Origin: an uncultured Bacilli bacterium
GTDB taxonomy: Bacteria; Bacillota_I; Bacilli_A; RF39; UBA660
NCBI GenBank assembly: GCA_947628075.1
Contig: CANQYF010000001.1
Coordinates: forward strand, 1 to 47,652
Reading direction: 5' to 3'
Length of the DNA: 47,652 nucleotides
The notes beneath the pieces are model-generated. The model searched no databases. It worked only from the letters and a program-made list of their open reading frames with translations, and was not told the origin of the DNA. The translations under genes were made by a program, and so were the position numbers. Below, one piece after another: positions 20,303-46,721 of this stretch (its first letter is position 1; every line of letters begins with the position of its first letter).

Positions 20303-20328
20303 AAATTTAAAAAGCCTAAAAAGGCTTT
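20303..20328 (-). terminator. intrinsic terminator after the 129-aa gene
   Basis: AAAGCC (20311-16) pairs with GGCTTT (20323-28), followed by a T-rich run on the minus strand. It overlaps the stop codon. Confidence 0.65.
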
Positions 20329-20716
20329 ATCTATTTAAAATATAACTTAATTCTTTTAACTTCTCTATTTTTCGTACATTTACTGGATATACTGTTGCTA
20401 CATAAGGCTTTTTATTTTTTCTTAAGCTTAGTTTAACAACGACACAAACATTTTCAGCTATTTCTTTAAAATAAAGTAATGATTTCTTATTAGGATCATA
20501 ATATACAAAAGTAGGCTCTTTGATAATTCGAGGAATATTAGATATGGTTTTGTTATAACTATCAACGCTTAAAAATTCTTTAACATGCTTAGCAATATGA
20601 ACATATAGTGATAGGGGCTGTATAATGTCAGCATTTTTATATTCATATAACTTGTATTTTTCTACTACTTCATCTGATATTATACCAACTTTTTTATCAA
20701 TGTTGCCTTTTACCAT
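20327..20716 (-). CDS. hypothetical small protein (weak resemblance to phage-type Barnase/EndoU/RelE-like PBECR nucleases)
   Basis: 129-aa ORF with an AAGGAGA RBS. The pattern HIAKHVKEF ... IIKEPTFVYYD ... SLLYFKEI ... VVVKL ... ATVYPV is reminiscent of that fold. No search was run. Confidence 0.4.
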   Translation of the reverse strand: MVKGNIDKKVGIISDEVVEKYKLYEYKNADIIQPLSLYVHIAKHVKEFLSVDSYNKTISNIPRIIKEPTFVYYDPNKKSLLYFKEIAENVCVVVKLSLRKNKKPYVATVYPVNVRKIEKLKELSYILNR

Positions 20717-32706: not shown

Positions 32707-32892
32707 TTAATTATGATTTCTTTTATGTGAATTTTTGATGCCTTCTTCTTTTTTTATTCTTCTTTCAACTCCAGGTTTAATATGAAATTTTCTTTTTTTA
32801 AGTTCTGAAGGGACTCCACTTCTGGCAACTTTAACTTTAAATTTCTTTAAAGCACTATCAATATTACCATTTTGTACTACAACCTTGGTCAC
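32707..32892 (-). CDS. rpsU: 30S ribosomal protein S21
   Basis: 61 aa, basic, with ALKKFKVKVARSGV...KKRKFHIKPG. GTG start 7 nt after GGGAGGG. Confidence 0.92.
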   Translation of the reverse strand: MTKVVVQNGNIDSALKKFKVKVARSGVPSELKKRKFHIKPGVERRIKKEEGIKNSHKRNHN

Positions 32893-32924
32893 AATTTCGC
32901 CCTCCCTTCGCTTTACTAAAGCAT

Positions 32925-32953
32925 ATTATAGCACTTACCATCCCATTTGACAA
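32925..32953 (-). promoter_or_regulatory. promoter of the rpsU operon
   Basis: The minus strand reads TTGTCA (32953-32948), a 17-nt spacer, then TATAAT (32930-32925). Confidence 0.6.
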
Positions 32954-33006
32954 CAAAAAAAGCCAAATAATCGAAAATACTAGGCAAAAAATTGTCAATT
33001 AATTAT

Positions 33007-33162
33007 TCATTTACAATAATTTTTTGACACAACTCTTTTTATAGTTGACCCTAGACTTCTGCCATAGTTAAAAATTGATTTCATGAAATTAATAACAGCA
33101 TCCACAAGTGCTCCCGACAAACTTCCACCTTTTACTAATAGTAAATCTTCATCTTTTAACAT
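33007..33162 (-). CDS. double-glycine-leader bacteriocin precursor B (51 aa; 38-aa cationic mature peptide)
   Basis: Hand translation gives MLKDEDLLLVKGG|SLSGALVDAVINFMKSIFNYGRSLGSTIKRVVSKNYCK. AGAAGGAGG RBS lies 5 nt before the ATG. TGA stop. Not in the ORF track (<60 aa). Confidence 0.75.
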   Translation of the reverse strand: MLKDEDLLLVKGGSLSGALVDAVINFMKSIFNYGRSLGSTIKRVVSKNYCK

Positions 33163-33174
33163 TTTTACCTCCTT

Positions 33175-33324
33175 CTAACATTTATTGGGATTTATATAAC
33201 CATCCCAAACTCCTATTAAAAAAACTGCAATTCCAGTTAATACACCAGTTATAAAACCAGCTAATTTAATACTGAAAGCTCCTCCTACTACATTCATCAT
33301 TTCTTCATTATTTAATACTTTCAA
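33175..33324 (-). CDS. double-glycine-leader bacteriocin precursor A (49 aa; 34-aa hydrophobic GxxxG-rich mature peptide)
   Basis: Hand translation from a TTG start 7 nt after AGAGGAGG gives MKVLNNEEMMNVVGG|AFSIKLAGFITGVLTGIAVFLIGVWDGYINPNKC. Not in the ORF track. Confidence 0.72.
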   Translation of the reverse strand: MKVLNNEEMMNVVGGAFSIKLAGFITGVLTGIAVFLIGVWDGYINPNKC

Positions 33325-33337
33325 TTTATTACCTCCT

Positions 33338-33763
33338 CTACTTAAATAATTCTAAAATGTATTTAATAACTTTTTGCTTTCCATAATAAATAGTAACTTC
33401 TCCTACTTCATTATTAAAAGCTTTACCATCTATAGTTAACTCAACTGTTTGCCAAACTTTATTATCAACTATTTTATATTCGCCAAAATCTTTAATTTGA
33501 TAACTTATCTTTGTCTTATTAAATTCTAATGTCTTACCTTTTTTGATTTTATCAGAGAGTGAGTTTTCTATTTCAATTGTCAGTATTCCATCATTTATAA
33601 AACCATAACAAGTTATCTTTTGATTAATCGAAGTAAAAAAAGCTAAAAAGACTAAATAGAAAATTAAAAATATAATACCAACAATAATTATAAAAAAGTT
33701 AATCTGATATAATTTTTGTAATTTGTCATAGTTAATTTGATAATAATTCATTCTTGACTCCAA
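33338..33763 (-). CDS. miniature HlyD/ComB-like bacteriocin export accessory protein (putative)
   Basis: 141 aa with one N-terminal TM helix and a beta-rich domain. The end, EVGEVTIYYGKQKVIKYILELF, resembles the C-terminus of LcnD/ComB-type accessory proteins. It overlaps the ABC gene stop. Confidence 0.45.
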   Translation of the reverse strand: MESRMNYYQINYDKLQKLYQINFFIIIVGIIFLIFYLVFLAFFTSINQKITCYGFINDGILTIEIENSLSDKIKKGKTLEFNKTKISYQIKDFGEYKIVDNKVWQTVELTIDGKAFNNEVGEVTIYYGKQKVIKYILELFK

Positions 33764-35792
33764 TCTCTATAATTTTTGAAAAAGCTTTTGTTTGATTTTT
33801 ATGCGATATATAGATAATTGTTTTATCTTGAAAATATTCTCGAATATTTTTGATAATTTTACTTTCTAATTTATAATCAACCTCACTTAACGCTTCATCT
33901 AAGATAATAATATTACTTTTTTTAAGTAGTCCTCTTGCTAATATGATTCTTTGCTTTTCACCTCCTGATAAATTTTTGGAATGTGGTTCGATTAATGATT
34001 CATAACGCATTGATTTTTTATTAACTATATCTTCGATTGCACATAATTTGCATATTTCCAAAAATTTATTTTCTTGCACATTACGTCCTAGCAAAATATT
34101 TTCTTTAATTGTTCCTGTAAAAAGTTTTTCATCTTGAGAAACATATAAAATATTTTTTCTTATCGTATTAAGATTTAAATCTTTAATATTTTTATTATCA
34201 ATAGTTATTTCTCCTTTTATATTATCAAACTCTTTATATAACAATTTACAAATAGTGCTTTTCCCAACTCCTGATGGTCCATTTAATAAAACGTGCTCTT
34301 TATCATTAATATTTAAATTTACATTCTTTAAAATATAATCATAATTATTATAAGAGTAACTAACATCTAAAAATTTTATATTTCCTTTTAAATTTAATTT
34401 AGCTTCTTCATTTTTTTCTTCTTCAATATTAATAAACTCTGCTATCTTTGCAAATGTTGCTTTAATATAATTAAATTTTGGTAGTAAATTAATAATATTT
34501 TGTATCGGATCAATACAATAAGATAATAAGAAGTTAAAGGTAAAAAGATCAACCAAATTTATAAGTCCCTGATAAATACACCAAAACCCATAAGAATTTA
34601 TAACAAATAAAGAACATTCGATAAAGAAACTTTTGCCTAAATTTGTTAAATTCACAAAGCTATTAAATTTAAAATTATTATATAAAAATCTCGCTAGATG
34701 CCTTTCTATTTTTTGTAATATATTATCTTTAATGTTTAAATTTTTAATACTTTCAAGCATATCGATTTGCTCAGTTATTAAGCTATTAAAATCAGTTTGA
34801 TAATCGACATTTTCTAAAACCTTTAAATATATAATTTTGCTGATTATAAAACCATAAATTATATAAAATATTAGGAAAATCAATAATATAAAAAACAATT
34901 TTTCATTAATTATATATAAGATAACCATAGATGCCAACATTAAAAGTGAATCAAGGATACCGGAGACAAAAATTTCCGAAAATAAATTTTTGATATTAGC
35001 AAGTTCGCCAATTCTCGTTACTATTTCTCCTGTCATTCGACTTTTAATATTTTTTAAAGGGAGTGAAAAAATATGCTCTATAAAATCCGGATAAATATAA
35101 GTATCAACTAAATTACTTAAATGATTTTCATAATAATCTCTTATAAAATAGATAAATATTTTAATCAATACTAAAGTTCCAAAAGCAAAGACAATATATT
35201 TTAAATAATTTAAATCAATACTTAATGCATTACTTCCAACTTTTAAATAATAACTACTAATAATAGACAATATAATCCATAGTATACTTGTTATTACTAT
35301 TTTTAAAACAAGAAACTTTTCCTTTTTAATAATGTTTAAAAATAGTTTACTAATGGTTATGCCTTTAGCCATTTTAATTATTGGTACTCGTGGATGCATT
35401 AAAATTAAATGTCCTGTAAATATGTTAGCAAAATCATCTATTAACATTTTTTTATCACCAACGCCTGGATCCATTAAATAAACAACGTTGTTTTTAACAC
35501 ATTTTATAACAACAAAATGTTCTAGTCCATTTTTCATAATTACATGTGCAATTAAAGGAAATTTTAAAGTTGACGATTTTAAATTTTTTTCTAATATTCC
35601 CACTGCATCAAATCCCCACTTTTTTAAAGCGTTAACTATATGATAAGCAGTTGTACCTTTCATATCAGTATTTGTATCTTCTCTTAGTTTTTCTAAAGAT
35701 ACATAACCGCCGTAATACATAAAAATCCATTCCATTGCACAGACACCACAATCTTTTGAATCTCTTTGAATGACCGGTTTAATATGTTTCAT
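33732..35792 (-). CDS. bacteriocin-processing ABC exporter with N-terminal C39 peptidase domain
   Basis: C39 catalytic Cys context QRDSKDCGVCA and His context EHFVVIKC...YLMDP. It has a six-TM region, Walker A GPSGVGKST, signature LSGGEKQR, and Walker B IIILDEA. Start set at the ATG (MKHIKPV) after AGGGAGG. The track start at 35807 is the RBS itself. Confidence 0.92.
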   Translation of the reverse strand: MKHIKPVIQRDSKDCGVCAMEWIFMYYGGYVSLEKLREDTNTDMKGTTAYHIVNALKKWGFDAVGILEKNLKSSTLKFPLIAHVIMKNGLEHFVVIKCVKNNVVYLMDPGVGDKKMLIDDFANIFTGHLILMHPRVPIIKMAKGITISKLFLNIIKKEKFLVLKIVITSILWIILSIISSYYLKVGSNALSIDLNYLKYIVFAFGTLVLIKIFIYFIRDYYENHLSNLVDTYIYPDFIEHIFSLPLKNIKSRMTGEIVTRIGELANIKNLFSEIFVSGILDSLLMLASMVILYIINEKLFFILLIFLIFYIIYGFIISKIIYLKVLENVDYQTDFNSLITEQIDMLESIKNLNIKDNILQKIERHLARFLYNNFKFNSFVNLTNLGKSFFIECSLFVINSYGFWCIYQGLINLVDLFTFNFLLSYCIDPIQNIINLLPKFNYIKATFAKIAEFINIEEEKNEEAKLNLKGNIKFLDVSYSYNNYDYILKNVNLNINDKEHVLLNGPSGVGKSTICKLLYKEFDNIKGEITIDNKNIKDLNLNTIRKNILYVSQDEKLFTGTIKENILLGRNVQENKFLEICKLCAIEDIVNKKSMRYESLIEPHSKNLSGGEKQRIILARGLLKKSNIIILDEALSEVDYKLESKIIKNIREYFQDKTIIYISHKNQTKAFSKIIEIGVKNELLSN

Positions 35793-35911
35793 TTTTCCTC
35801 CCTTCACTAATTACTTACGTCTTTTTTTTACCTTTTCCTTTTTTTTAAATTTAATTTATGAAATTTTTTATACATAACAACATAATATTTAGTAGTAATG
35901 AGGAGAGAGAT

Positions 35912-38281: not shown

Positions 38282-39301
38282 TTATTCTGATTCTATTTCT
38301 AATCTTTTTTCTATATCTTCTATACTAGGTAAAGTGTCCTCTAAAAATTCTGGAATTTCTGACAATATTTTATATTCGCTTACACCAATAGGTTTATTTA
38401 TATCTTTCAAAGCTAGTTCTGCAGTTACCTTCTTTTTATCTTTACAAAGTAATATGCCAAATGTAGGGCTATCATTTTTATCTTTAATATATTTATCGAT
38501 AGCGCTTAAATAAAAATTCAATTTACCAGCATATTCTGGCCTAAATTCTGTTGTCTTTAATTCAATAACCACATAACTTCTAACTTTTAAATTATAAAAC
38601 AATAAATCAATATAATAATCTTCATTTTCTATTTCTAAATGATACTGTCTACCAATAAAGGCAAAACCCTGACCAAGTTCTAATAATAATTTAGTTATAT
38701 TATTAGTTAACTCTCTTTCAATATCTAATTCTTTAACATCTTTATCAGCAGTTATAAAATCGAAAATATAAGGATCTTTTAACAATTCTTTTGCTTGTTT
38801 ATTATTAGGTGTTGGTAAAGTTTCATCGAAATTAGTAGTTTTATTTTCTAAAAGAGCTTGTCTTTCATATAACTTACTTGCTATTTGATGTGTTAAAACC
38901 GAAACAGACCAACCATTTTCTATTGTTTCTTTTGCATACCATTTTCTGATTTTTTTATCTTTCACTCTATCTAATAATATTTGATTATGATTCCAAGACA
39001 ATTTTGCAAGGACTCCTTGCAAAAATTCATCATTATCAAATTCACTAGCAAATTTTTGCATATATCTTAAATTTCTTGCAGACATACCTTTAATTGTAGG
39101 AAACTCTATTTTTAAATCTTTTGCTAAAGTATCAATAAAAGATGTTCCCCATTTATTATTTTCAATTAACTTTAAGCCAATATGGTAATACATTAAAATT
39201 AAATCTTTATTTGCATTTTCAACAATCTTGTTTCTAGTTGCAATTAGTGTTTTTTTGATATCAGTTAATACTTCAAAATATTTATCATTCTTTTCTAACA
39301 T
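38282..39301 (-). CDS. YhcG-like PDDEXK nuclease (DUF1016 family)
   Basis: 339 aa with an N-terminal helical domain. The C-terminal YIDLLFYNLKVRSYVVIELKT gives a D...E-x-K nuclease core. Confidence 0.75.
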   Translation of the reverse strand: MLEKNDKYFEVLTDIKKTLIATRNKIVENANKDLILMYYHIGLKLIENNKWGTSFIDTLAKDLKIEFPTIKGMSARNLRYMQKFASEFDNDEFLQGVLAKLSWNHNQILLDRVKDKKIRKWYAKETIENGWSVSVLTHQIASKLYERQALLENKTTNFDETLPTPNNKQAKELLKDPYIFDFITADKDVKELDIERELTNNITKLLLELGQGFAFIGRQYHLEIENEDYYIDLLFYNLKVRSYVVIELKTTEFRPEYAGKLNFYLSAIDKYIKDKNDSPTFGILLCKDKKKVTAELALKDINKPIGVSEYKILSEIPEFLEDTLPSIEDIEKRLEIESE

Positions 39302-39538
39302 AATTTTCCTTTCATATAGATTTTATCCAAAGTATATAACCAATTTAACTTTGAATCATCCATTCCTCCTGTATTTTATACATCTTATAAATATACAATA
39401 CCACTAATAAAATAATCTGAAAAGAATAAATTTTACAATTTTTTTTGGTTTATTTATATTTCTAATTAAAAAGTCGCGATACTTTTGCAAAATATCACAA
39501 CTTTTAATTAATATTCAAGCCTTTAAATATAGTCTTTT

Positions 39539-39823
39539 CTAATTCATACTCCCTAAAATAAGTCCAACTAATTCTTCAATATTTTCCGTATAAACCATCA
39601 TTGCTTCTAAATAATCTTCATTTGTGCCATTATTGCCTTCGATATCACTTATTTCTTTACTTTTTAAAAACTCAAATGCTATTCCATGTTCAACTGCAAA
39701 TTTAAGTAAGAAGGCTATTATTAATTTTTGCTTTTCAATTATTTCATTATTTTTTTCATCTACATTTAATTTAACAAACTCATCCATAAAAGCTGTAAAT
39801 ACTTTTTGTTTTTCTTCCATCAT
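39539..39823 (-). CDS. hypothetical small helical protein (third gene of a coupled triad)
   Basis: 94 aa. Its ATG overlaps the upstream stop (ATGA), and GGAGG lies 9 nt upstream. Confidence 0.5.
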   Translation of the reverse strand: MMEEKQKVFTAFMDEFVKLNVDEKNNEIIEKQKLIIAFLLKFAVEHGIAFEFLKSKEISDIEGNNGTNEDYLEAMMVYTENIEELVGLILGSMN

Positions 39824-41211
39824 CTGGACATACCTCCAAATTCTTGGCCTTGGACCATTTGCATTTGATATAAAGAGCTCATACTTTGTAATTTCTTTTT
39901 CATATCAACATATTCTGGTGGTAAAGTAGTCACTGCACTTTGAGCTAACTTTTCATCCATAGTGGCTTCATTTTCTTTTATATTTTCTCTATCATTTCTT
40001 GCTCTTTCATATAGTTCATCTTTTTTAAGGCCATCATCCCACTCTTGATATCTTTCAGCTTTACTTTCTATTGCATGGGCATCTGCTACAGCTTTTTTCG
40101 CATCAGATTCTAATCTTTCATTTTCTTCTTGCAAACTATATTCACCATTTCTAATATGTATTTTATCTTGTTGCAATCCTTGATTATTTGTTAAAATTTC
40201 ATCATAAGTTCTAACTGCTTTTTCAGCATATTCCATCTTACTACTAATATTATCTCTTTTTTCTTGTAATTCTTTACTTTTATCACTTTCTATTTTTAAA
40301 GCGCCATCTAATAAAGTAGTAATTTCATTTATTTTTTCATTATATTTACTATATTTTTTATCAGTTAAACTAGGATTTGTAATTAGACTTTTTATAGTTT
40401 CTAAATCTAATTGTAATTGATCAGATGCTCTTAATTTATCTAATGCTTCAGCTGAAATAGCAATTACTTTTGGTGGTAAGGCTTTTTCAATCGCTGCTAC
40501 TTCTTTTTTTATTTCTCTTTGTAATTCTACGTTTTTCTTTTCCGAATAAATTGCAGGATTTTTTAAAGTAATAGCTAAAGCATTTAAGGCTTGTTCAAAA
40601 CTAATATCTTCTTCCTTTTTTAAATCATAAGCTTCATCTATTTGAGCTTTCTTTGCTTCATATTCTGGTTTGGCTTCATTTTCAGCTGTCACAGACATAA
40701 TTTCTTGCTCAAAAGGAACACTACCTTTATTCATTAAAGAATGTCTACCTATTGTTTCAAACTCTCTTGCTACACTTTCATAATTTTGTCTTTCATTATC
40801 ATATTCTTTACCTGATGGTATATGAGCTAAAACATTATCATTTAATTTTAAACAATATTCCGTTTGTTTAAAAAATCTTTCTTGTAATTTTTCTATATCA
40901 CCATTTATATTTTTTCTTAAATCATTAATCTCTTCTATGGCTTTTTTGGCACTTTTATTTTCTTCAAGTTCTTTTTGTAAAGGTTCAAATGGCATAGTTT
41001 TAACAAACATGTTATTAACTTCAATTAATTTTGTTATATTATCTAGTATTCCTAATAATTCTCTTAATCCTAGTTTAAGTGTTCCTAACTGCTTACTTGC
41101 TTTCCCACTTAAATAAACATGATCAAAATTTTCAACAGTGCCTCTTAAAGTTGCCTCATAGCCTAAAAGACTATCGTAATTCATCAAAGATTCAAATTTA
41201 ATTGGATCCAT
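39820..41211 (-). CDS. hypothetical 463-aa charged, predicted all-helical/coiled-coil protein
   Basis: Long E/K-rich ORF with a GAGAGG RBS inside the upstream gene. No family recognised. Confidence 0.5.
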   Translation of the reverse strand: MDPIKFESLMNYDSLLGYEATLRGTVENFDHVYLSGKASKQLGTLKLGLRELLGILDNITKLIEVNNMFVKTMPFEPLQKELEENKSAKKAIEEINDLRKNINGDIEKLQERFFKQTEYCLKLNDNVLAHIPSGKEYDNERQNYESVAREFETIGRHSLMNKGSVPFEQEIMSVTAENEAKPEYEAKKAQIDEAYDLKKEEDISFEQALNALAITLKNPAIYSEKKNVELQREIKKEVAAIEKALPPKVIAISAEALDKLRASDQLQLDLETIKSLITNPSLTDKKYSKYNEKINEITTLLDGALKIESDKSKELQEKRDNISSKMEYAEKAVRTYDEILTNNQGLQQDKIHIRNGEYSLQEENERLESDAKKAVADAHAIESKAERYQEWDDGLKKDELYERARNDRENIKENEATMDEKLAQSAVTTLPPEYVDMKKKLQSMSSLYQMQMVQGQEFGGMSR

Positions 41212-41449
41212 TATTTAACCTCTCTTTCATTGTATTAATTACTTCTATAACTTCATTATCTTCGACACTTTCTAAAGATATTTCCCCATTAGTAGTTACC
41301 ACTAAATTAACATATAAAGCTATATTGTTATTATCTAATACTTTATTATCTGTATAAACTAAATAATTACCATTATCATTTTTTACATAAGCAATAATTT
41401 CATATTCTTTACCAGAAATAATGATTTTATTATTTTCTTTTATTTCCAT
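41198..41449 (-). CDS. DUF1292-like small protein
   Basis: 83 aa. GKEYEIIAYVKNDNGNYLVYTD...IALYVNLVV..GEISLESVEDNEVIEVINTM follows the DUF1292 (YrzB-like) pattern. Confidence 0.45.
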   Translation of the reverse strand: MEIKENNKIIISGKEYEIIAYVKNDNGNYLVYTDNKVLDNNNIALYVNLVVTTNGEISLESVEDNEVIEVINTMKERLNNGSN

Positions 41450-44951: not shown

Positions 44952-46721
44952 TTACACTGCTATTAAAACATTACCTGTTACACCAGCTTCTTCTAATCTC
45001 TTGTTTACCCAGTCTCTATTTTCTTCGTCTTTTACTATTATGGTTATGCCATCGGTTACCCCTCTAAACATACCGGCATAAGAAGTTACTTGACTAAAGT
45101 CCGCAATTCGCATGTCTAAAAATTCTAAGGAACTATCGCCCCAAAACATGCTACCTGTATTTGTTGCATTTTCGGTATTGAAACTAGATAAATCAAGATT
45201 TGTTATTTGACTCATTCCACTAAACATAGAGGACATATTTGTAACGCTACTTGTATTAAATCCCTTTACATTTAATTTTAACAACGACTTCATATTATTG
45301 AACATTCTTGACATATCAGTTACTTTCCCGGTGTTGAATTTTGATAGATCAAGTTCTTTTAAAGAACTTACACTTTCAAACATCATGCTCATAGTTGTCA
45401 CATTGCCAGTATAAAAACTACTTACATCTAATTCAGTGAGTGAACTCATTCCTGCAAACATACTACCCATATTTGTTACTTTCATTGTATTAAAATTTGA
45501 CACATCTAATTTGGTTACTCTACTTAAACCAGAAAACATACCATACGCAGTTGTTACTTTCTTGGTATTAAAATTCGATACATCAAATTCGCTACCTCTA
45601 ATACCAAGTCCAAATTCACTAAAATTATCTATAGTCGCGGTGTCTAATTTACTAACATCTAATTTGTCCAAACTTGCCGAGCCAACAAAACATCGCCATA
45701 CATTACTATTTAAATCACTATAAAAATTGCCAAATACAATATTTTCTAAATTGGATAGCCAAGAAAAAAAATAGCTAATATTTAATGAATATATTCTATC
45801 TTTGCTTCCTATATATAAATCATAATATTGTTCTTCTTCATCTGTCTCTTTTGAAATTTCTTCTAACCAACCTATAATGCTTCCTGCTGGCGATTGATTT
45901 TTACCAGTTCCAACGTTTGTTAAATCCCAAGTTTTAATCACTGATTCGGTATTTATATAATCAACAAAATAAATATTTTTAATATATTGTGCCCATTCTT
46001 CACTTCTAAAAGCACCGTATTGATTATTATATCCAGTACTAACTAAATAAACTGCTCTTTCACCAGTTAATTCACATTTTAAATCTGTAGTATCTATATC
46101 TATATTGATATCTTTTCCTGATATATAACTTTGGTCTGTTTCTTTATTTGTTAACTCTATATATGTTTCTATACTTTTACTATTATTTCCTACTATATCT
46201 AAACTGATTGGTATTGTTGTTTTGCCATTTGTGTTTTGAAGTGTTGATAAATCAATAACTTTGTGATTTGTTCCCCATCTTAGGAATACTTTTAAATCGT
46301 CTTGCTCTAATACTGGTAATATACTATTAACTCCATTATCAACAGTAATTGTAACATTCGCTGTACATCTATAAATATTATCGTCTTTTTTTGAGTTAGT
46401 TAGTGTAATTACTCCTATATCATGAAATCCTTCACTTTTGGTTTTAACATAATTATCTTCGTCGTCAGCATAGATTGTTCCTAAATTATCTAAGCTCATA
46501 GCAGAACCATCAACATTTAAATTTAATTTAGTAGTTGGATTTTGAATACTGGCAATAGCTACTCCCTCTGTACTTCCTGTTACTACTGTTTTATTATAAT
46601 TATTTGAGTTTACTTCCACAGCAAAATAAGCATATGATGCCCCAATTAATAATACTAACAAAAATAATATTCCTATTATTAATTTTATATCGATTAATTT
46701 TTTCTTCTTTTCTCTTGTCAT
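44952..46721 (-). CDS. membrane-anchored surface protein with BspA/DUF285-type leucine-rich repeats
   Basis: 589 aa with a Lys-rich N-terminus plus a TM anchor and no lipobox. The C-terminal half has about seven units of about 26 aa of the form LDVSNFNTxKVTNMxSMFxGxSSLxE. Confidence 0.8.
   Translation of the reverse strand: MTREKKKKLIDIKLIIGILFLLVLLIGASYAYFAVEVNSNNYNKTVVTGSTEGVAIASIQNPTTKLNLNVDGSAMSLDNLGTIYADDEDNYVKTKSEGFHDIGVITLTNSKKDDNIYRCTANVTITVDNGVNSILPVLEQDDLKVFLRWGTNHKVIDLSTLQNTNGKTTIPISLDIVGNNSKSIETYIELTNKETDQSYISGKDINIDIDTTDLKCELTGERAVYLVSTGYNNQYGAFRSEEWAQYIKNIYFVDYINTESVIKTWDLTNVGTGKNQSPAGSIIGWLEEISKETDEEEQYYDLYIGSKDRIYSLNISYFFSWLSNLENIVFGNFYSDLNSNVWRCFVGSASLDKLDVSKLDTATIDNFSEFGLGIRGSEFDVSNFNTKKVTTAYGMFSGLSRVTKLDVSNFNTMKVTNMGSMFAGMSSLTELDVSSFYTGNVTTMSMMFESVSSLKELDLSKFNTGKVTDMSRMFNNMKSLLKLNVKGFNTSSVTNMSSMFSGMSQITNLDLSSFNTENATNTGSMFWGDSSLEFLDMRIADFSQVTSYAGMFRGVTDGITIIVKDEENRDWVNKRLEEAGVTGNVLIAV
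45057..45671 (-). repeat. coding tandem repeats (about 78-nt period) encoding the LRR units
   Basis: Recurrent ...GATGT(A/C)TC(A/T)AATTT(C/T)AATAC... style units, seen as the periodic protein motif F-N-T-x2-V-T-x-M-x2-M-F. Confidence 0.7.

Follow-up and report, generated by a model that had tools for sequence, protein, structure and literature searches.

The question raised by this locus is what two short, tandem open reading frames (ORFs), here called pepA and pepB, encode. They occupy positions 33007–33324 on the minus strand of a 47,652-nucleotide stretch of DNA from an uncultured Bacilli bacterium (contig CANQYF010000001.1, hereafter the window), behind the gene for a peptidase-containing ABC transporter (PCAT) and a gene for a membrane protein of ~135 aa. 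An initial annotation had proposed that they specify a novel class IIb-like two-peptide bacteriocin. Our answer is graded. pepA and pepB are almost certainly real genes, and they very probably form a two-peptide unit that is processed by the PCAT. That this unit is an antibacterial, class IIb-like two-peptide bacteriocin encoded by a four-gene chromosomal cassette is the reading that we favour on balance from comparative sequence analysis. Rather than a lone curiosity, the system is best seen as a member of a two-peptide family that is widespread in low-GC gut bacteria but uncurated.

pepA (33175–33324) encodes a 49-aa precursor from a TTG start, with the ribosome binding site (RBS) GAGGAGG (33332–33338) 7 nt ahead of it. 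pepB (33007–33162) encodes a 51-aa precursor from an ATG start, with its RBS AAGGAGG (33168–33174) 5 nt ahead and directly after the pepA stop, which lies 12 nt from the pepB start on the same strand. The leaders of pepA (MKVLNNEEMMNVVGG, 15 aa, 33324–33280) and pepB (MLKDEDLLLVKGG, 13 aa, 33162–33124) both end in GG. Hydrophobic residues at −4, −7 and −12 and an acidic residue at −8 can be read directly in each, which is the consensus of C39-type leaders that the initial annotation had described; its coordinates for the two minus-strand ORFs with strong RBSs were also right and its translations identical to ours. The predicted mature peptides are AFSIKLAGFITGVLTGIAVFLIGVWDGYINPNKC for pepA [34 aa, 3599 Da (3599.2), 33279–33178] and SLSGALVDAVINFMKSIFNYGRSLGSTIKRVVSKNYCK for pepB [38 aa, 4168 Da (4167.9), 33123–33010]. 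In a six-frame regular expression scan of the 47.6 kb for ORFs with GG leaders, only pepA and pepB stood free; every other match coincides with a long same-strand ORF, as judged by position in the ORF list, irrespective of reading frame.

Short ORFs are frequent at 26% GC, and pepA and pepB might accordingly be chance, unexpressed ORFs in an AT-rich spacer. We give this next to no credence, as the comparative data effectively refute it. Both ORFs have a strong RBS and conserved synteny, and they have hundreds of homologues with common invariant residues (described below). At an orthologous locus (L015) the ~135-aa protein gene, the pepA and pepB counterparts and rpsU follow each other in the same order, the peptides being 84% (pepA) and 75% (pepB) identical to those of the window. 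The dN/dS ratio between the two loci (Nei–Gojobori, with synonymous sites near saturation) is 0.07 for pepA and 0.23 for pepB; only conservative replacements are seen, including all 13 in pepB, and by this measure both genes are under purifying selection. L015 has an ATG at the position of the pepA TTG, which supports the TTG start assumed in the initial annotation. The description of the genes as unannotated holds only for the ORF track on which that annotation was based, since gene callers do call both in independent metagenome assemblies, where the exact pepA and pepB proteins are found on contigs unconnected with the window. In two Logan assemblies (L002:813-995 and L003:814-996, corresponding to window 33007-33162) the TGA stop of pepB is replaced by TGG, and the products (P0003 and P0005) reach 60 aa, with WKINWQFFA or WIINWQFFA added from the spacer ahead of rpsU. 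Natural read-through alleles, or variation introduced by assembly or sequencing, could account for them.

The exporter gene (33732–35792, minus strand) encodes a PCAT of 686 aa with the Pfam domains Peptidase_C39 (1e-31), ABC_membrane and ABC_tran. It probably starts at the ATG at 35792, behind GGGAGG, and not at the GTG at 35807 given in the ORF list; the ATG start leaves ~65 bp to the divergent SpoIIIAH-like gene (35858), a gap so short that the promoters of the two genes must overlap. Among solved structures the nearest is PCAT1 [4RY2, E = 1.8e-101], with ComA at E = 1.9e-81 (full-length alignment). In the C39 site, the oxyanion Gln and the catalytic residues Cys, His and Asp line up with their PCAT1 counterparts, and neither the Walker nor the signature motifs are disrupted. 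The protein is thus a true leader-cleaving PCAT rather than a C39-like pseudo-protease, and is predicted to remove the GG leaders of the two peptides and carry both out of the cell. All related exporters that were inspected have the DCG-type Cys and the HF/HY and DP motifs. Against NCBIfam TIGR01193 the exporter scores 385 bits, below the trusted cutoff of 524. It also scores 313 bits (below the cutoff of 500) against NF045998, the Mbov_0121 family peptidase domain-containing ABC transporters of mycoplasmas, a match which hints that related PCATs, perhaps with related cargo, persist in Mollicutes. A scan of GTDB representatives (which did not include the genome of the window) with the exporter yielded one true cassette relative, L007 (31–33% identity), a Bacilli metagenome-assembled genome from a Hadza gut sample, plus generic ABC matches.

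pepB belongs to a large family. Word-indexed homology searches with the single peptides returned near-identical sequences only, so that the pepB family was revealed by an exhaustive phmmer search of 1.84 billion representatives (50% level), which gave 39 matches at E ≤ 1e-3. Nearly all are 49–75 aa long and align end to end; one protein of 487 aa matches over a short stretch only. A profile search extended the family to at least 479 clusters (90% level), all of them unnamed or ‘hypothetical’. Among 112 aligned members the GG of the leader, G34xxxG38, R43 and C50 are invariant and S39, I41 and R42 nearly so. All 112 have exactly one cysteine in the mature region, which in 111 of them lies 0–3 residues from the C-terminus, and the net charge ranges from +1 to +7. 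Mature pepB of the window is a cationic amphipathic helix (net charge +5, hydrophobic moment up to 0.69, pI 10.0), as the initial annotation had it, and the G21xxxG25 motif that it had noted is the invariant G34xxxG38 of the family in mature numbering. An AlphaFold2 model computed with the family alignment has a short leader helix and one long helix (14–46) across the mature residues, with a mean pLDDT of 81.9 and a core of 94. No Pfam or NCBIfam model covers the pepB family, whose members give a few weak matches to leader-type or other bacteriocin models: against NF038034 (lactococcin G-beta/enterocin 1071B) pepB scores 18.1 bits, below the cutoff of 37, over residues 2–28, which are mostly leader, and only three of 40 family members match this model, weakly. 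The pepB motif strings were found in no relevant paper in our literature search. The earlier statement that neither mature peptide is recognisable as a described bacteriocin also holds. PDB sequence searches with pepB, with pepA and with a profile of the ~135-aa protein gave chance matches only (a poxvirus membrane protein, botulinum toxin, Dpo4).

Mature pepA is a hydrophobic transmembrane helix, and its precursor scores 16.9 bits against the GG-leader model TIGR01847, above the cutoff of 15.7. Eight partner peptides collected from related loci make up the pepA family set. In their alignment the GG, G42, P46 and C49 are invariant, and the family pattern is a transmembrane helix that ends in GxxxG and is followed by an invariant C-terminal G-[YFL]-x2-P-x2-C. 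Two runs of glycines had been highlighted in pepA beforehand. G23xxxG27 (mature numbering) is kept in seven of the eight sequences, the remaining one having SxxxG; G8xxxG12xxxG16 is not conserved in the family. The invariant C-terminal cysteine of both peptide families had not been remarked upon. The comparison with class II bacteriocin hidden Markov models (HMMs) that had been suggested as a check shows an affinity of pepA for a class IIb family: all eight family members match TIGR03949 (class IIb, lactobin A/cerein 7B) at E ≤ 0.05 and five pass its cutoff of 21.5, namely the ortholog in L015 (22.3) and those of L017, L018, L019 and L024 (22.5–28.4), and seven of the eight match PF10439 (Bacteriocin_IIc) at E ≤ 0.05, the best at 2.1e-5. 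In pepA of the window and most of the relatives scanned the TIGR03949 and PF10439 matches stop before the G-[YFL]-x2-P-x2-C element.

The peptides always come as a pair. The order PCAT, ~135-aa protein, pepA, pepB is found in all 11 lineages examined (the window, L015, L007, L017, L018, L019-21, L022-23, L024-25, L026, L027 and L028), and the A and B genes overlap or are separated by no more than ~12 nt. This bears on the possibility that each peptide is a one-peptide (class IId) bacteriocin in its own right, with only the exporter in common. Loci with several bacteriocins and unrelated GG peptides are common, and extra GG peptides do occur in L026 and L027, but a strict one A plus one B in fixed order across all lineages, an overlap or spacer of ≤ 12 nt that suggests coupled translation, complementary physicochemistry and an invariant single C-terminal cysteine in each partner make independent peptides quite improbable. 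A 717-bp contig in ENA encodes a 105-aa protein (P0052) that is a head-to-tail read-through of pepA-like and pepB-like precursors, each with a GG leader.

GG leaders are also found on pheromones, and one or both peptides might be quorum-sensing pheromones of the ComC/BlpC type. There are weak matches to ComC and EntF induction-factor models, and in L017 and L027 the exporter is preceded by a gene for an XRE-type helix-turn-helix protein. These HMM matches are limited to the leaders, however, and the mature peptides, at 34–38 aa with membrane-spanning helices, are unlike short pheromones. Neither the 47.6-kb window nor the regions beside 10 related cassettes contained a histidine kinase, response regulator or Rgg-type gene. 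We regard a pheromone function as very improbable.

For a class IIb-like bacteriocin, then, there speak the adjacent GG peptides, the C39 exporter, the complementary helices, a GxxxG motif in both and the unbroken A–B pairing, and in these respects the original proposal is supported. Measured against the usual layout of this class, two adjacent, different peptide genes lie in one operon, GG leaders are present on both preforms (15–30 residues in the class; the 13 aa of pepB are slightly short), an ABC transporter with a C39 peptidase is dedicated to them, and GxxxG or small-xxx-small motifs occur in both peptides. Other observations weigh against a bacteriocin. An immunity gene accompanies the two structural genes in class IIb (PMC2850506); between pepB and rpsU there is no ORF conserved between the window and L015, and hence no recognisable immunity gene in the operon, nor was an immunity-type Pfam family found in the 47.6-kb window. 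Nor is an accessory protein of the LcnD/LagE/ComB type recognisable: the gene that had been read as an accessory gene matches no HlyD/LcnD/ComB model and corresponds in position only. pepA of the window itself stays below the thresholds of both class II models, with 19.3 bits against the TIGR03949 cutoff of 21.5 and 20.8 bits against the PF10439 gathering threshold of 27.1, which would place it at the edge of the curated class IIb family, as a fringe member. Finally, the cassette lies directly upstream of rpsU-yqeY in seven of the 11 lineages, and its inheritance seems to be vertical. At the four rpsU-linked loci compared, the identities to the window for exporter, S21 and YqeY are 48%, 78% and 56% in L018, 44%, 68% and 54% in L017, 43%, 74% and 54% in L024, and 33%, 62% and 47% in L007. 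The exporter thus ranks as YqeY does, and roughly as S21, a parallel that points to long vertical descent at the rpsU site, during which the cassette proteins changed more rapidly than those encoded next to them. Bacteriocins typically have a patchy, mobile distribution; the ranking suggests that this cassette was instead passed on vertically. L018 and the window also have the divergent SpoIIIAH-like gene in common.

These points bring into play a secreted or membrane-inserted heterodimer with a non-antagonistic role directed at the producer, in the envelope or sporulation, in cannibalism-type self-lysis or in signalling via an unlinked sensor. Like certain other PCAT cargos, such a heterodimer would leave the cell by a bacteriocin-type export route. 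Such a role would fit the same site upstream of rpsU-yqeY despite a peptide identity of only ~35–50% across the rpsU-site lineages, the ranking of exporter identity with that of YqeY and S21, the low dN/dS, the lack of a detected immunity gene or mobile-element signature in the window, and the sporulation and housekeeping neighbours (SpoIIIAH-like, YabP, YqfD). The peptide chemistry and the affinity of pepA to a class IIb HMM are those of pore-forming bacteriocins, however; relatives differ in the additional GG peptides and the immunity-like small transmembrane ORFs that they carry; and the cassette is also found at other chromosomal sites (L019, L022, L026). Weighing the two sides, we consider a producer-directed or otherwise non-antagonistic role a substantial but less likely rival, and retain the antibacterial two-peptide unit as the preferred reading.

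The extras carried by relatives are of three kinds. In L007 (8775-8912), L019 (5153-5323) and L022 (5153-5302) a third small ORF begins inside the last codons of pepB. Its product has an N-terminal transmembrane helix followed by a pepB-like half, ‘..IF.[FY]G...G[SK]..R’, without a GG leader, and aligns in register to positions 25–43 of the pepB profile; of 2000 shuffles, only 1 (L007), 14 (L019) and 12 (L022) score as well. From this resemblance the third ORF is plausibly an anchored pepB mimic that acts as an immunity protein. A related transmembrane protein of 68–69 aa follows pepB in L017 and L027. A third GG-leader peptide is encoded in L026 (3402-3524) and L027 (3724-3852), with the mature sequences CLWSKKIIHAVTKLIYGFINRLAII and SFIGILTHVLISVISIANFCKLVKGRR, which shows that the set of peptides carried as cargo is not constant. 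All of these extras are absent from the window and L015. A 44-aa ORF at 32864-32998 of the window was rejected as an immunity gene: it has no RBS, runs into the promoter and start of rpsU, has its frame broken by stop codons in L015, and scores against the pepB profile like its own shuffles.

The second gene of the cassette (33338–33751, minus strand) encodes a single-pass membrane protein of 137 aa (137–141), and its start overlaps the exporter stop by ~20 nt, an arrangement of overlapping start and stop that recurs in all related loci. A short N-terminus is followed by a transmembrane helix and a β-rich ectodomain of ~95 aa. Identity within the family is 14–31%. Neither the protein nor a profile of its family matched a Pfam or NCBIfam model (accessory and HlyD models included) or a PDB sequence. 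LcnD-, LagE- and ComB-type accessory proteins are HlyD-like; an apparent likeness of the C-terminus YYGKQKVIKYILELFK to the HlyD C-terminal motif finds no support in the HMM searches and carries no weight here. In a single-sequence AlphaFold2 model, confidence is limited to the N-terminal helix with the transmembrane segment, and the ectodomain has a pLDDT < 50. The protein is a conserved partner of the exporter, and we assume that it helps export or confers self-protection; a role as immunity factor is conceivable but purely hypothetical. In the rpsU-linked relatives L017, L018, L024, L027 and L028 the partner has one cysteine or a CxxxC pair just outside the transmembrane helix; L007, L019, L022 and L026, a group that also carries the third ORF or the extra peptide, lack that cysteine.

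How would such a unit work? In the model for class IIb bacteriocins, cleavage after GG at export is followed by equimolar release, parallel packing through GxxxG motifs and leakage of the target membrane (PMC2850506). By analogy, the PCAT would cut after GG and export the hydrophobic helix A and the cationic amphipathic helix B in roughly equal amounts, while the ~135-aa protein, translationally coupled to the exporter, would assist export or protect the producer. In the target membrane A and B would form a parallel helix pair, with G23xxxG27 (A) packed against G21xxxG25 (B), and would cause leakage, possibly with a membrane protein as receptor, along the lines suggested for lactococcin G and the plantaricins. 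The cysteines may add to this. That of A lies 7 residues past GxxxG in a proline-containing tail and that of B 12 helical residues past it; the physical distances are similar, so that a C-terminal intermolecular disulfide could lock the parallel dimer. The two cysteines might thus form a disulfide-linked heterodimer of 7765 Da (7765.1), or act as free thiols. We know of no disulfide-linked two-chain architecture among class II bacteriocins, and our literature search returned no paper that joins a class II bacteriocin with an intermolecular disulfide between two peptides. It also counts against the proposal that disulfide formation outside strictly anaerobic gut bacteria is uncertain. The fullest version of the model, a disulfide-stapled, parallel heterodimer of a transmembrane and an amphipathic helix that is a vertically inherited core trait of a low-GC gut Bacillota clade, with a partner that could be a new export, assembly or immunity factor, is put forward only tentatively, and we think it possible but doubtful.

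The cassette is set among housekeeping genes. The window has a GC content of ~26% and nearly all of its genes lie on the minus strand. rpsU (minus strand), downstream of the cassette, has its own strong promoter-like site (TTGTCA, 17 nt, TG-TATAAT; 32925–32953, minus strand), which has 11 of 12 consensus matches and an extended −10, is conserved in L015, and is the downstream border of the cassette. Between it and pepB lie a weak hairpin and a U7 tract [32955–32985, minus strand; fold −5.7 kcal/mol, z-score −1.56, not significant], and the TTTGGCTTTTTT element of this region is kept in L015; the hairpin and U7 tract may be a leaky terminator ahead of the rpsU promoter. A consensus terminator scan found no terminator, and an Rfam search gave no match. 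rpsU is followed by yqeY, yabP, yqfD, a VanZ-like gene, ybeY, dgkA, era and recO. The SpoIIIAH-like gene at 35858 is the divergent neighbour upstream of the exporter. The remainder of the 47.6 kb is housekeeping, including PolC, DnaE, LigA, PcrA, MutL, tRNA synthetases and MscL, and a search of the window revealed no mobile-element signature.

Three other loci on the minus strand deserve mention. At 20327-20716, amid housekeeping genes and adjoining a UvrD/PcrA-type helicase, a 129-aa protein has a PBECR3 domain (phage-Barnase-EndoU-ColicinE5/D-RelE-like nuclease 3; E = 9e-15) and may be a toxin-type nuclease. A YhcG-type PDDEXK nuclease (DUF1016) and ORFs of 94, 463 and 83 aa, for which no confident Pfam match was obtained, occupy 38282-41449, between fmt and a class I aminoacyl-tRNA synthetase gene, and may be a small inserted island. 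At 44952-46721 a 589-aa protein contains DUF285 repeats (‘Mycoplasma protein of unknown function’) with a weak leucine-rich-repeat match. Together with YabP, YqfD and the SpoIIIAH-like gene it points to a spore-forming, low-GC Bacilli or Erysipelotrichia-like gut lineage.

If the peptides are active, they represent a large two-peptide bacteriocin-like family without curated annotation, the pepB relatives in its clusters being all unnamed, and with a profile of the aligned pepB sequences, annotation pipelines could detect these short genes, for which there is no curated model. An invariant cysteine at a fixed distance from GxxxG in each partner offers a direct handle on the pairing of two-peptide bacteriocins. 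The cassette also introduces a minimal, uncharacterised ~135-aa partner of PCATs. Conservation of the rpsU site across deep divergence raises the question of whether certain cassettes of the ‘bacteriocin’ kind serve as lasting core functions and not as mobile weapons.

Among known systems, the cassette resembles the class IIb bacteriocins lactococcin G, plantaricin EF/JK and enterocin 1071 (PMC2850506) in its two adjacent, different peptide genes with GG leaders, in a dedicated C39 ABC exporter encoded in the same row of genes, and in 30–40-aa helical, cationic or hydrophobic mature peptides with GxxxG as the conserved core of each. It differs from them in that the mature peptides have no sequence similarity to any characterised pair, both have one invariant C-terminal cysteine, the ~135-aa partner is unrelated by sequence to the LcnD/LagE/ComB-type accessory, and the cassette of the window lacks an immunity gene and sits at a conserved housekeeping position. 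pepA resembles the TIGR03949 and PF10439 families over the leader and the glycine-rich, hydrophobic N-terminal two-thirds of the mature peptide, whereas the pepB family has no counterpart in either model. The exporter has the same three-domain architecture as PCAT1 of Clostridium thermocellum and ComA of Streptococcus, at ~30–35% identity (by eye); its gene is always followed by the overlapping ~135-aa gene, whereas PCAT1 is not known to have such a partner. Lactococcin B is a thiol-dependent one-peptide class II bacteriocin, unmodified and with a GG leader, which has a single, mid-chain cysteine whose redox state matters. The peptides described here are like it in combining a GG leader with a single cysteine; unlike lactococcin B they are two partners, each with its cysteine at the C-terminus, an arrangement that suggests a heterodimeric link.

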